A DNA stretch of 64,000 bases from Dictyostelium discoideum. Taxonomy: Eukaryota. Numbering within the stretch: the stretch's first letter is position 1; each line of letters opens with the position of its first letter. A program made the translations under genes and the position numbers. The stretch is from contig CM000152.2 in the NCBI GenBank assembly GCA_000004695.1, positions 5,184,001 through 5,248,000 of the forward strand, read 5' to 3'. Under the pieces are notes generated by a model. It ran no database searches. It worked only from the letters and a program-made list of their open reading frames with translations, and had not been told where the DNA came from. Below, one piece after another: positions 21,202 through 53,319 of this stretch.

Positions 21202-23257
21202 GATAGTGTAACACTTGGAATAATCTTCTATGCATCAGTTTTATTCATAATTTCATTCAATTCAAGAAATAATAAGAGTATTAATAAAGATGAAGATGAA
21301 AATGAAGCTTCAAGTAGTGATACCAATAATATTACAAGCAAAATTAAACTATCAGTTCCAAATAAACCAACTCCACCAACACCAACATCAACACCACCAA
21401 CTCAATCTGTATTATCAAATAGAACACCACCTAAACCACCAACAATACCACCAACTAAAATTACAACATCACCAATGACATCGCCAACTAAATTATCAAC
21501 ACCAACACCAACACCACCATCTCAATCTGCACAATTACCAATTAAAGTTATTCCAACACCATCTTCACCAATTGCAATAATTAATAATGTACAACCACAA
21601 CAATCACCAACTTTATCATCAACAAATACTACACCATCATCATCACCAATTGCATCATCCAAATTAAATAATACACCATCAACAACAACAACAACAACAA
21701 ATACAACAACAGTTTCATTTTCTTCATCACCATCACCAACACCACCATTATCAATACCATCACCAGTAAAAGTTGTTACATCAAATACATCAAAATCAGA
21801 TGCAATTCTTGAAAAAGGAAAAAGAATTGGTAAAATGATTCCACAAATTCCAGATGCAATTGCAGATATAAAAAAAGAATTTAAAGAGACGAGTAAAGAT
21901 AAAAAGAGTATGTCAACACTTCGTGGTATCATTGGTGGTGCAATTAAGAATATTTCATCATCAACAACACCAATGACAGCAGAAGAAAAAGAGAAAGAAA
22001 AGAAAAGAAAAATGATTGCTCAAGAGATTTTACAAACTGAAAAAGTTTATGTTCAAAAACTTCGTGCAATCGTTGATGTATATTTAACACCATTCAAAGT
22101 TGCTGCAACTGAAAATCCTCATCCACCTTTAACTCTTGATCAAATTCATTCAATCTTTTCAGAGATTTTAATCATTTTCAATTATAATTCTCATTTCTAT
22201 AGTAAATTAGATGAAAGAATGAAAGAAAATTCAAATGTTTTAATATTAGGTGATTTATTCCTTTCAATTGTATGTTTTTCTAGAATAAATTTATTTTATT
22301 ATTATAATAGATAGATGATACTAATTATATATATATTTTTATTTTTATTATTATTATTATTATTATTATTATTATTATTATTATTATTATTATTATTATT
22401 ATTATTATTATTATTATTATTATTATTATTATTATTATTATTATTATTATTATTATTATTATTATTATTATTATTATTATATATTTATAAAGACTGATTT
22501 TTTAAAATCATATTCAGTTTATGTAAATAATTATACAAAAGCAATGAGTACATTAGAAAAAGTTAAAAAGAATCCAAATGTTGAAGCATTATTACAAACA
22601 TTTCAACAGAATCCAGCATGTGATTCATTAGATTTAAATTCATTATTGATTATGCCAGTTCAACGTGTACCAAGATATATATTGTTATTGAATGAATTAA
22701 TAAAGTGTACCGATCCAAAGAATCCAGACTATGAAAATTTAAATAAGGCATTAGAGAAAATGAAAGTTTTAGCATCTGTAATCAATGAAAATAAGAGAGA
22801 GGCTGAATTTTTGAATAAAATGTACGATATTCAAAATAGTTTAGAAGGTTTTAATCGTGGCGATTTCATACATCCATCAAGACGTTTAATATTGGATTGT
22901 GAATTCAATGAGAAACTATTCAAAACCAATTGTGCTCAACCTCCAAAATCTTCTTCCACCCCAAGAAGATACCTACTTTGCAATGATATTCTAGTTAGAA
23001 CTAAAGTGAAAGGAAAGAAACTTGTTGTTCAAGAAATTTTCAATGTAAATGATATCACCTTTAAAGAGATGTTGGGTGAAAAGTTAGCAATCGTATCTGG
23101 TAATCAAACTGATGTCTTGGTTCTAAAATCTGTTGTCGATGAAAATCAAGAAGAGAAATGGGTCGAAGCTATCAATAATTGTAAAAAAACTTTTATGTCA
23201 AATCAAAATAGTTTCGAAAGACGTTTATCTTCTTCTTTCGAAAATGTTGGTATTTAA
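21115..23257 (+). CDS. RhoGEF (DH-PH) protein with an N-terminal TM segment and a Pro/Thr-rich linker. CDS = join(21115..22269,22493..23257).
   Basis: The DH domain is EKEKKRKMIAQEILQTEKVYVQKLRAIVDVYLTPFK...ILGDLFLSI|TDFLKSYSVYVNNYTKAMSTLEK...LLIMPVQRVPRYILLLNELIKCT, followed by a PH-like tail. Intron: donor ATT|GTATGT, acceptor ATAAAG|ACT (AAG acceptor; the alternative CAG at 22515 gives a worse DH alignment). The intron contains an (ATT)~46 tract. Confidence 0.85.
22344..22481. repeat. (ATT)n microsatellite, ~46 units, inside the RhoGEF intron
   Basis: Seen directly. The poly-Leu ORF at 22315..22497 is an artifact. Confidence 0.95.
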
Positions 23258-24874
23258 ATTTATAATAATAAAAAATAAAAAAATAAAAAAATTAAAATAT
23301 TTAAAATAAAATAAAAAATGCCATAAAATATAATAATAACCAAGACAATTTTCAATCATAAGTAATTTGCATCAATTTAAAAAAAGATCTTTTATCTTTT
23401 TTTTTGTTTTTTGTTTCACACAATTAATTTCACCACTTAAAACCTTATAATTCAAAAATAATCTTATTTAATTTTTAAATCTAAACAATATTTTTGGTTA
23501 AGAACAAAAAAAAAAATTAATTAAAAACCAATATAAAAAATAGTTTTATTTTGTTTAATTTTAAAAAAAAAAAAATTAAAATATATTTATATATTTTTTT
23601 AAATATTTCGACTTTGTAAAAATATTAATTTTACAAATTTTTAACAGTTGCAATTTACTAATTATTTGTTTCTACTTGAATTTTCTTCTTCATTTATTTT
23701 TTTTGGGTATAATTTTTCGGTTAAAAGATAATTTCTAATTTCATTTATTTCTTCATTTGTTAAATGAAAATAAAAATTATCACTTATAAAAAAACTGGAT
23801 TTCTTTGATTTATTTTCGTTTTCAAAAACCATTTTTGATTTATTTATTATTTTTATTTGATTTTTTTTTTTTTATTTTATTATATTTTTTTTAAATATTT
23901 TTTAATTTGTATTTTTACAACATTAGGTGAAGAGGATTTAATTGTTTAAAAAAAAAAAAAAAAAAAAAAAATTAAATGATTTATAAGAAAAAAAAAAATA
24001 AAATAAAAATAAAATTAATTTAAATGATTTATATGAAAAAAAGATATAAAAAATCAATAGAAATTTTATTTATTTTAAAAAGATTATTGTATTGGGAGGT
24101 GGGGTTGAAAAATAGTGTGAAGAAAATCAAATATAGAAGTTGCAGTATTATTTGTACCAATAATTTTTAAAGTGTATAGGTGGTTATCGGATAAAATCGA
24201 TTACAATAAGCATTCAGTTGAAAAAAAAAAAAAAAAAAAAAAATCTAATTATATTTGATTTTTTTTATGTATAAAAAATAAAAAGGAACATTTCAACATA
24301 AATTATTTGAATTTTTCTTTTTTTATTACTGTAAAGAAAAAGTGTGAAATTTATTGAAAATAAAAAAAAAAGATATAACCCCTTTTTTTTTATTATGTTA
24401 AAATCTGAAACATATTTTCACTTAAATTATAATAAAATTTCCTTCAACGTTGACACATCGGTATGATTCATAAAGATTAAATTTATTTTTGGGTACTTTC
24501 AAAGTAATCTCTTTTTTTTTTTCCAATCTTGATTTTTTTTTTAAAATCTTTGGGGTTTTTTTTTTTTTTTTTTTTTTTTTTGGAAATAAAAATGTTAAAA
24601 AAACCATTGCCTGTATAAAAAAAAAAAGTATATATATAAAATAAGTTATGTAAATATTTGTATCAATCTTTTTGTTTTTTTTTTTTTGTTTTTTTTAATA
24701 TCTTTTTTTTTTTATTTTTTTTTTTAAAAATTTTGTATTATGGGGGGTATTATGTGGTTAATTATTAATAATAAAAATATTATTATCATTATTATTATTA
24801 TTAACTATATATAATTATTTATATTAATAATAATAATTTTAATATAAAATATATAAAGGAAAAAAAAGGATTGG

Positions 24875-51930: not shown

Positions 51931-52310
51931 AAATAAAAATAAAAATAAAAATAAAAATAATAAAAATAAAAAAATAAAAATAAAAATAAAACATTACCAA
52001 AATAAAAAAAAAAAAAAAAAAAATAGACAGACGAGTCAATAACAGTCATTACCCAGTCAAAATCTATTTTTAAATCGTTCACCATAATTTCCCACTTTTT
52101 TTTTTTTCTTTTAATTTTAATTTTTTAATTTTGTAAAAAAAAAATAGATTTTTTTATTTTTTTTTTTTTTTTCTTAATTTTATAAATTTATTTTTTTTTT
52201 TTTTTTTTTTTTATAATTCAAATTAAGTCAACTCAATTTAATTTTAATTTCATATTTTATAATTATTAATTATTTTTTTTTAAAAAAAAAAAAAAAGAAA
52301 ACAAAATAGA

Positions 52311-53319
52311 ATGTCAGTAGATCAAGAATTAATTGAAACTCAAAAGAATTGGATCCCATTAGAAGCAAATCCAGAAGTATTAACAACATTTATGCAAAGT
52401 TTAGGAGTTTCTAAAGATTGGGAATTCTGTGATATATATGGTATTGATGAAGGTTTACTTGAAATGGTACCATCACCATGTGTAGCTGTAATTTTATTAT
52501 TCCCAATCACCAATGAAGTATGTATTTTTATTTTTATTTTTATTTTTATTTTTATTTTAATTTTAATTTTAATTTTCAAATTCATTCATTCTCAAATAAT
52601 TAATAATTTTATACTAAATTTAGTATGAAGATAAAAGATATAAATTAGAGAAAGAGATTGAAGAGAAAGGTCAAGTTTTATCAGATAAAGTTTATTTTAT
52701 GAAACAATATATTGGAAATGCATGTGGTACAATTGGTGTGATTCATTCAGTATTAAACAATGCAAATGTTATTGAATTTAATGAAAATGGTTTCTTTAAA
52801 CAATTTTTAGATAAAACCACATCACTTTCAACTGAAGAGAGAGCAATCTCACTTTTGAAAAATAGTGAAATCGAAAAATCTCATGAAATCTCTGCACTTC
52901 AAGGTCAAAGTAATGTACCACAAGAAGATGAACCTGTAGTTTTACATTTTGTTTCATTTGTTCATGTATGTAGTAATAATAATAATAATAATAATAATAA
53001 TAATAATAATAATAATAATAATAATAATAATAAGTTAATAATTAATAAATTAATAAATTTTTACTAATAATTAATTTAATAATTAATTATTTAATAATAG
53101 GTTGATGGACATTTATATGAATTAGATGGTAGAAAACCATTTGCAATTAATCATGGTGAATCAAGTGCTGAAACATTATTAAAAGATACAGCTAATGTTT
53201 TACAAAAGATGATTGATGAAGATCCAAAAGAAATTAGATTTAATTTAATGGGTTTGGTTAAAAAACCAAATGAAGAAAGTGAGGAAGAAGAAGAAAAAGA
53301 AAAAGAAGAAACAAAATAA
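52311..53319 (+). CDS. Ubiquitin C-terminal hydrolase (UCH-L3-type, peptidase C12), ~255 aa. CDS = join(52311..52517,52624..52965,53101..53319).
   Basis: [20 protein letters not shown]...[18 protein letters not shown]|[11 protein letters not shown]...[21 protein letters not shown]...LHFVSFVH|[19 protein letters not shown] matches UCHL3 ([57 protein letters not shown]). Donors GTATGT (x2). Intron 2 contains (AAT)~20. Confidence 0.9.

Follow-up and report, generated by a model that had tools for sequence, protein, structure and literature searches.

The window analysed here, 64,000 nt of AX4-like Dictyostelium discoideum nuclear DNA, carries long perfect trinucleotide repeats within the predicted introns of five genes. 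These tracts raise the question of whether they are genuinely spliced out and, if so, whether they grew inside existing introns, descend from coding homopolymers or serve to adjust expression. The orthologous loci of two further D. discoideum isolates (GCA_054859355.1 and GCA_054859385.1) and of four related species (D. cf. discoideum, D. dimigraforme, D. firmibasis and D. purpureum) were compared, together with a second, independent assembly of the window's strain type (GCA_054883475.1). The two isolates diverge from the window by ~2.1% in Sec23 exon 2 and may thus represent a rather distant lineage instead of close population samples. Introns were fitted to the protein lengths of public gene calls with a solver; for IF4E, this yielded 18 alternative solutions, so that the placement of its three introns is only approximate. 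The compartment statistics cover the window beyond its first 19 kb, the part for which public gene calls were obtained; an 818-aa open reading frame at 6182-8635 is not on public record as such. The features are summarized in Table 1.

Table 1. Introns and repeat tracts of the five genes, with window coordinates and, where given, the repeats as placed by the initial annotation.
Feature	Position	Strand	Length (nt)	Phase	Intron ends	Initial annotation	Remarks
RhoGEF (DH-domain) gene, intron	22270..22492	+	223	0	GTATGT..AAAG		4% GC
RhoGEF intron, perfect tract (TTA)45	22345..22480	+				(ATT)~46 at 22344-22481	61% of intron
TMEM50/UPF0220 homologue (Q54T60), intron 1	31505..31751	-	247	0	GTAAAT..TTAG
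TMEM50 intron 1, perfect 20-copy tract (20.7 copies)	31509..31570	-				(ATT)~21 at 31508-31570	(TAA)20 on sense strand; past a TACTAAC motif, ending 4 nt before 3' splice site
Sec23, intron	32958..33219	+	262	2	GTATGT..ATAG
Sec23 intron, perfect tract (GAT)29	33026..33112	+				(GAT)~29 plus (AAATTA)~10 at 33026-33216	29 TGA stops in frame of upstream exon
Sec23 intron, hexanucleotide tract (AAAATT)9	~33160..33217	+				see previous line	between TACTAAA motif and 3' splice site
APT1-like thioesterase (Abhydrolase_2), intron 1	51081..51278	+	198	2	GTAGGT..AAAG
APT1 intron 1, perfect tract (AAT)28 (28.7 copies)	51113..51198	+				(AAT)~28 at 51114-51198	TAA stops in exon frame
APT1, intron 2	51466..51606	+	141				carries (AGAT)6
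UCH (Peptidase_C12, Q54T48), intron 1	52518..52623	+	106				carries (TATTTT)6
UCH, intron 2	52966..53100	+	135	0	GTATGT..ATAG
UCH intron 2, perfect tract (TAA)20	52974..53033	+				(AAT)~20 at 52977-53036 (3 nt off)	begins 2 nt past GTATGT donor hexamer

Direct reading of the sequence recovered all five long trinucleotide tracts of the initial annotation within a few bases of where it had placed them, and its outer limits coincide exactly with intron ends, the RhoGEF intron starting at 22270 and UCH intron 2 finishing at 53100. The tracts consist of perfect head-to-tail units, with 20-45 trinucleotide copies plus nine copies of the hexanucleotide, and at 60-136 nt such perfect repeats cannot have arisen by chance. 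The assertion that introns of the window harbour such repeats repeatedly stands for five of the 17 introns of the annotated part; the other 12 are without a trinucleotide tract of at least eight copies. Of another repeat class, (AGAT)6 in APT1 intron 2 provides an example in another intron.

The introns are old. Their positions are each common to 4-6 dictyostelid genomes: those of TMEM50 intron 1 and Sec23 are kept in six genomes, D. purpureum included, and that of UCH intron 2 (FVH/VDG, the slash marking the junction) as far as D. purpureum. The APT1 intron 1 position was found in D. firmibasis, and that of RhoGEF was traced as far as D. firmibasis, being present also in both other D. discoideum isolates. 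The tracts, in turn, are young, strain-specific and strongly variable in length, and the variation among the three D. discoideum genomes, for which the initial annotation had suggested looking, proved large, with flanks alignable throughout. The 45 RhoGEF copies correspond to 7 and 12 in the other isolates and to 0 in D. firmibasis, and the 20 of TMEM50 to 7 and 4, with 31 in D. dimigraforme and 3 each in D. firmibasis and D. purpureum. For the 20 of UCH, the isolates have 5 and 3, D. cf. discoideum 23, D. firmibasis 4 and D. purpureum 0. The 28 copies of APT1 form a clean insertion in the alignment, with 0 copies in both isolates (intron of 90 nt) and in D. firmibasis and 32 in D. cf. discoideum. 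The Sec23 intron is reduced to 106-107 nt in the two isolates, which hold only a gatgatgat(a) seed (~3 copies each) and 1-2 AAAATT units, and no GAT tract was found in the orthologous introns of D. dimigraforme, D. firmibasis and D. purpureum. Overall, the tracts are absent or reach at most four copies in the D. firmibasis and D. purpureum introns examined. Independent expansions occur elsewhere, with (ATA)23 in place of (TATTTT)6 in UCH intron 1 of D. cf. discoideum and (AAT)67 in a PIG-U intron of D. firmibasis.

We consider it very probable, on these sequence comparisons, that nothing more than ordinary AT-rich microsatellites is involved, recently expanded by slippage within old spliceosomal introns, in keeping with the initial suggestion of expansion tolerated in introns. 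Short seeds of 3-4 units would have grown by replication slippage in pre-existing introns, a process to which both the few-unit repeats that other isolates have at these sites and the published mutation biases (PMC7466956) point. The tracts would persist because the interior of an intron demands only a 5' splice site, a branch-point motif and a 3' AG. Since AAT/ATT, GAT and AAAATT are free of GT and AG, their expansion should create no cryptic splice sites and introduce no AG ahead of the 3' splice site. Here, the tracts are assumed to be neutral, and the CTAAY motifs are taken as putative branch points. At each of the five sites, the window carries a longer tract than either other isolate, which is partly ascertainment, as the earlier reader had chosen the longest of this strain; a lineage-specific tendency to expand may also exist in the window's strain.

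The tracts might instead act as tuning knobs, with repeat length setting splicing efficiency or transcript level and selection keeping or favouring long alleles. The RhoGEF intron lends this some substance: its only TACTAAT, which resembles a branch point, is separated from the 3' splice site by (TTA)45, so that the two are ~170 nt apart, versus ~40-55 nt in the other isolates. In yeasts, altered branch-point-to-3' splice-site distance affects 3' splice-site use. Tract density is also higher in introns than in intergenic DNA. However, long alleles were conserved in no comparison, and housekeeping genes (Sec23, APT1 and UCH) lack whole tracts in other isolates of the species. Moreover, non-coding triplet loci of the species are as variable as mutation and drift predict (PMC3460934). 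Selected tuning is thus improbable, and intron-hosted non-coding RNA, such as a snoRNA, was ruled out, since the whole window has no Rfam match at gathering score; tRNAs were also not found in it.

The initial annotation had also envisaged intronisation, in which former coding poly-Asn, poly-Asp or poly-Ile/Leu stretches turned into introns as flanking splice sites arose. AAT does encode poly-Asn at other places of the window, as had been noted, in the AP-1 gamma hinge (N17) and a 970-aa protein (N29), and the lengths of APT1 intron 1 and UCH intron 2, two of the five, are divisible by three. The accompanying claim that GAT encodes poly-Asp did not hold, as no poly-Asp occurs in any real coding frame of the window and its one further perfect (GAT)n (56076-56108) reads as poly-Ser on the opposite strand. 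Against intronisation, each orthologue examined has an intron at the site and none an exonic homopolymer, and tract-free introns occur at the same positions and between the same flanking residues in D. firmibasis, and D. purpureum has them too in the case of TMEM50, Sec23 and UCH. The exons abut within conserved domains without a gap relative to the Pfam profiles, so an insert would not fit. Furthermore, a codon is interrupted by the intron in both Sec23 and APT1, where the tracts read as TGA and TAA stops in frame; three of the five intron lengths (223, 247 and 262 nt) are not multiples of three; and the tracts arose after the D. discoideum isolates had diverged. Intronisation of coding poly-Asn or poly-Asp was therefore rejected on comparative sequence grounds as exceedingly improbable, and the idea can be dropped.

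Slippage within old introns presupposes that the tracts are spliced out, as the initial annotation had it, and the gene models point to this for all five through their GT..AG ends, the uninterrupted Pfam domains obtained upon removal and the public calls. The five tract-bearing introns, along with APT1 intron 2 and UCH intron 1, start with GTA(T/A/G)GT or GTAAAT and finish with AG, and the spliced coding sequences remain open to the annotated stop. GC content is 4-17% in the introns versus 29% in exons. Single-stretch Pfam matches bridge the junctions in four genes: the RhoGEF domain in the 639-aa spliced RhoGEF product (1-180/180), zf-Sec23_Sec24 in Sec23 (1-39/39), where splicing restores a zinc-finger Cys codon (tg/t), Abhydrolase_2 in APT1 (3-216/217) and Peptidase_C12 in UCH (1-210/211). 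The UPF0220 match begins at the TMEM50 junction instead of crossing it, so that for this gene the support is that the product equals the AX4 protein Q54T60, whose sequence ...ALAGII/FTAGWF... sets intron 1. An alternative TMEM50 intron at 31498-31759 in phase 1 was ruled out by a second donor conserved across species and by the AX4 protein. The UCH product is likewise identical to its AX4 protein (P0134; Q54T48). Public calls agree exactly with four of the five models, in length and span for RhoGEF, TMEM50 (156 aa) and UCH (255 aa) and with 226 aa over 1020 nt for APT1, the solver solutions for TMEM50 and APT1 being unique.

If these models were wrong, the tracts would be kept in mRNA as coding or untranslated sequence. 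Automated annotation of this region does include at least one doubtful model, the 801-aa Sec23 call, which differs from ours, but the intron at issue is common to both. Retention is nevertheless scarcely conceivable: unspliced reading runs into in-frame stops in all five introns (in RhoGEF, after 14 codons), after splicing, each protein matches its domain completely and in a single stretch and equals the AX4 RefSeq/UniProt entry where comparable, and the exon boundaries are the same in the orthologues of five other genomes. The five splice models are thus confirmed at the level of sequence, with TMEM50 intron 1 now at 31505-31751. Judging from homology, annotation and sequence logic, the tracts are most probably removed by splicing and never translated.

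The tracts could also be artefacts introduced when the reference was sequenced or assembled, as long perfect AT-rich repeats are difficult to assemble and the window differs from GCA_054883475.1 almost exclusively in homopolymer runs, but this is hardly credible, because the five trinucleotide tracts have identical lengths in both (45 copies for RhoGEF, for example), and the other assemblies of the series hold tracts of up to 188-203 nt, equally long ones at other sites showing that those assemblies are not collapsed.

Trinucleotide tracts of at least 24 nt occur at 2.1 per kb in introns versus 0.11 in intergenic DNA of the window. When orthologous regions were pooled over the five other genomes, the same class occurred at 1.4 versus 0.24 per kb; this is a small, post hoc sample. 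Homopolymer runs had no intron bias in this compartment comparison, and dinucleotide tracts were absent. In the D. discoideum group, long trinucleotide microsatellites might conceivably favour introns over intergenic DNA of similar composition, a proposal that we make only tentatively. If the preference were genome-wide, a transcription-associated bias of 3n slippage or stronger constraint on the very compact intergenic DNA could explain it.

In the accessible portions of the literature, the D. discoideum genome is given as 11-14% simple repeats, mostly trinucleotide, spaced every 392 bp in non-coding and every 724 bp in coding DNA (PMC3460934, PMC9234386, PMC3188802). Its non-coding triplet loci have a gene diversity of 0.73-0.80 (PMC3460934), and its mutation spectrum is A/T-biased with a high rate of 3n indels (PMC7466956). 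The window's tracts match these known non-coding microsatellites, which are of the AAT/ATT class, AT-rich, tens of copies long, polymorphic among isolates (PMC3460934, PMC9234386) and ascribed to slippage under this mutation spectrum (PMC7466956), and for which the literature within reach lumps introns with intergenic DNA; among the motifs of non-coding DNA with 10% GC, (GAT)29 is less usual. A likeness exists to Plasmodium falciparum, a protist with a genome of ~80% AT and ~11% microsatellites, at 13.6 per kb in introns, 10.4 in intergenic DNA and 1.7 in coding sequence, the intronic tracts being the longest and, owing to their length, the fastest-mutating (PMC6644851). There, however, mono- and dinucleotides dominate and most trinucleotide tracts are coding, whereas the intronic excess of the window is trinucleotide and dinucleotides are absent. 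Human intronic expansions such as FXN GAA (PMC9234386) are also slippage-grown triplets that could in principle disturb transcription or splicing, but with 20-45 copies in introns of 135-262 nt the resemblance is in form only.

The finding illustrates an already known property of the D. discoideum genome, namely its many polymorphic trinucleotide repeats, and matters little beyond annotation. The five tracts would make good strain-typing markers. If introns are favoured by such tracts genome-wide, the distance from branch point to 3' splice site would be a natural variable in some genes, as from ~40 to 170 nt in RhoGEF. The (TTA)7/12/45 alleles of the RhoGEF intron, which follow its putative branch point and precede the 3' splice site, constitute a natural series for tests of splicing tolerance.

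The five long trinucleotide tracts placed in introns by the initial annotation, with ends that were off by only 1–3 nt, were recovered by direct reading of the sequence and by an exact scan of the window, which returned 22 perfect trinucleotide tracts, each 24 nt or longer. The window as a whole has a G+C content of 21% and is densely packed with simple repeats, giving 454 Tandem Repeats Finder rows. Its longest perfect tract is (AAT)62 at 8783–8969 (187 nt), which lies in no recognised intron and shortly 3' of the stop codon of the 6179–8635 ORF; no exact protein is on record for the 818-aa product of this ORF.

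Explicit exon models were built for the genes of the RhoGEF, the TMEM50/UPF0220 homologue (TMEM50), Sec23, the APT1-like thioesterase (APT1) and the Peptidase_C12 protein UCH. Every tract was flanked by a GTA[TAG]GT or GTAAAT donor and an AG acceptor, and the tract-bearing segments had a G+C content of 4–17%, compared with 29% for the exons. The spliced models were open frames, with one unbroken Pfam domain match across the junction in the four cases listed, namely RhoGEF (1–180/180), the Sec23/Sec24 zinc finger (1–39/39, with a Cys codon split as tg/t rebuilt at the junction), Abhydrolase_2 in APT1 (3–216/217) and Peptidase_C12 in UCH (1–210/211). Retention of any of the five introns introduced a stop codon into the translation; in frame, the Sec23 (GAT)29 tract becomes a string of 29 TGA codons, and the APT1 (AAT)28 tract yields TAA codons. 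Public gene calls on contig CM142509.1 (6.43 Mb) of the independent assembly GCA_054883475.1, located through neighbouring single-exon genes, equalled our models in length and span for RhoGEF (639 aa), APT1 (226 aa) and UCH (255 aa), and the UCH model was identical to AX4 protein Q54T48. The intronic assignment rests on splice-site bounds, restored frames, domain matches and public calls.

The TMEM50 intron (31505–31751, phase 0) was fixed by AX4 protein Q54T60 (...ALAGII/FTAGWF..., with the slash at the junction) and was the sole solution of an intron solver given only the annotated product length. Another TMEM50 intron, with ends 9 nt and 7 nt off, was discarded, as it is opposed by a conserved second donor and by Q54T60; what looked in one isolate like a donor changed from GT to GC proved, in the between-species comparison, to be a synonymous ggt-to-ggc change. 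The window contains neither an Rfam family nor a tRNA, and the introns therefore carry no known RNA gene. Of separate note, Sec23 is called as 801–821 aa in new assemblies of the D. discoideum group (window 35248–35297 and 35264–35469; 13271–15988 of L001, a GCA_054883475.1 locus), through a 50-nt GT..AG "intron" that deletes the canonical stop at 35264–35266 and adds a low-complexity downstream frame. In D. firmibasis and D. purpureum the protein is called at 750 aa and 748 aa, both times with the full Sec23 domain set, and the long call is probably an annotation artefact.

Against GCA_054883475.1, the window showed 99.6–99.8% identity over 42 kb. Nearly all differences were in the lengths of A or T runs. 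Where window positions 19405–64000 were set against two loci of that assembly (L001 and L002), the window copy was almost always the longer, and at 25945–25965 L001 carries a G/C/T-interrupted insertion within a poly-A run; homopolymer errors of the sequencing platform in one assembly or the other are the probable cause. The five trinucleotide tracts had equal lengths in both assemblies and are not assembly artefacts. The other assemblies are without collapsed repeats, since tracts of 158–203 nt occur elsewhere in them and their overall trinucleotide tract density is similar.

In homologue searches the proteins matched entries of D. discoideum AX4 by name, and close relatives came from D. cf. 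discoideum, D. citrinum, D. dimigraforme, D. firmibasis and D. purpureum. Orthologous introns, bounded by conserved flanking peptides, were compared in GCA_054859355.1 and GCA_054859385.1 (isolates 2 and 3, both labelled D. discoideum), D. cf. discoideum, D. dimigraforme, D. firmibasis and D. purpureum. Intron positions were identical wherever the gene was found; the tracts were not conserved.

Intronic repeat tracts of the window and their copy numbers at orthologous loci
Intron	Tract in window	Position	Isolate 2	Isolate 3	D. cf. discoideum	D. dimigraforme	D. firmibasis	D. purpureum
RhoGEF	(TTA)45	22345–22480	7	12			0	
TMEM50	TAA, 20 copies	31509–31570	7	4		31	3	3
Sec23	(GAT)29	33026–33112	seed gatgatgat(a)	seed gatgatgat(a)		none	none	none
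Sec23, after (GAT)29	(AAAATT)9	about 33160–33217	1–2	1–2				
APT1 intron 1	(AAT)28	51113–51198	0	0	32		0	
UCH intron 2	(TAA)20	52974–53033	5	3	23		4	0

The Sec23 intron measures 262 nt in the window versus 106–107 nt in isolates 2 and 3, and in the APT1 alignment the tract is a clean insertion between alignable flanks. Expansions in further introns are found in other lineages: in D. cf. discoideum, (ATA)23 occupies the first UCH intron, and in D. firmibasis, which is without a tract in the five introns studied, one PIG-U intron (about 15020–15320 of its locus L008) holds (TAA)21, (AAT)67 and (AAT)9 together. That the window exceeds isolates 2 and 3 at all five loci is partly an ascertainment effect, because it was flagged for those very tracts. 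Sec23 exon 2 (33220–35266) differs from the loci of the two isolates (L012 and L013) by 2.1%, or 42–45 substitutions, all synonymous; this seems high for conspecific isolates, so isolates 2 and 3 may be fairly distant lineages, possibly a cryptic lineage.

With the introns old and the tracts young, the comparison supports microsatellite expansion within pre-existing introns, the first of two origins initially proposed. The second, intronisation of formerly coding homopolymer tracts, drew on translation of the same motifs elsewhere in the window. AAT does encode poly-Asn there (N17 in the AP-1 gamma hinge, N29 in the 970-aa protein); the claim of poly-Asp from GAT failed, as D runs of five or more residues are missing from every real coding frame in the window. 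At 56076–56108, a perfect plus-strand (GAT)11 yields poly-Ser (TCA codons) from the minus-strand M24 peptidase gene, so the motif class of the Sec23 tract encodes Ser there, not Asp. Intronisation was rejected on four counts: outgroup introns are present without tracts, the junctions lie inside conserved domains, two of the five introns split codons, and in three of the five the length is not divisible by three. The coding tracts of the 970-aa protein (47139–50051) are themselves as variable as the intronic ones, including (AAT)52, (AAT)49 and a 48-copy TAG-register tract; the protein has 1043, 1073 and 1061 aa in the two isolates and the sister lineage D. cf. discoideum (L015 4857–7988, L016 4937–8158 and L007 4889–8074, respectively).

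The expanded motifs contain neither GT nor AG. A CTAAY or TACTAAY motif, a putative branch point, was found in all five introns and is kept between species, unlike the surrounding intron sequence. The TTA (RhoGEF), TAA (TMEM50) and AAAATT (Sec23) tracts occupy AG-free zones that separate this motif from the 3' splice site; the GAT (Sec23), AAT (APT1) and TAA (UCH) tracts precede the motif. If the motif is the branch point, the distance to the acceptor in RhoGEF would range among isolates from about 40 to about 170 nt, and this is the one place where the proposed effect of tract length on splicing is plausible. In D. cf. discoideum, APT1 intron 1 (L007 8875–9045) combines (AAT)32 with loss of an about 40-nt segment that in D. 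discoideum holds a CTAAT branch-point-like motif, and would therefore require a different branch site.

Compartment counts were made over the annotated part of the window (19405–64000), in which 17 introns add up to 2,390 nt. Trinucleotide tracts of 24 nt or longer numbered five in introns (2.39 kb; 2.1 per kb, 18% of bases), two in intergenic sequence (18.7 kb; 0.11 per kb, 1.1%) and four in exons (23.5 kb; 0.17 per kb, 0.8%), giving a post-hoc binomial P of 3×10⁻⁴ for introns versus intergenic sequence; homopolymer runs showed no intronic excess in the same interval. Orthologous regions of five other genomes pointed in the same direction in four cases (pooled, 1.37 vs 0.24 per kb), which is merely suggestive because the loci are orthologous and the counts small. 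There is a modest residual possibility of a genuine preference of trinucleotide tracts for introns within this species group. One interval, 41900–46150 (about 4 kb at 13–14% G+C, with short open frames only), is devoid of public gene calls in the loci retrieved and is unusually long as a gene-free stretch for so compact a genome.

The phenomenon is already known. Simple repeats, mostly trinucleotide, make up 11% of the D. discoideum genome (14.3% in a later count) and 4.4% of that of D. purpureum, with a D. discoideum repeat spacing of 392 bp in non-coding versus 724 bp in coding sequence (PMC3188802, PMC3460934, PMC9234386). Gene diversity at non-coding triplet loci of natural D. discoideum isolates is 0.73–0.80 (PMC3460934), mutation-accumulation lines show A/T-biased substitutions and many 3n indels (PMC7466956), and in Plasmodium falciparum introns have the highest microsatellite density and the longest tracts (PMC6644851). 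Overall, the observation is confirmed, with tolerated expansion supported and intronisation rejected, and is of low interest: in light of the published D. discoideum and P. falciparum data, the five tracts exemplify a described property of the genome.
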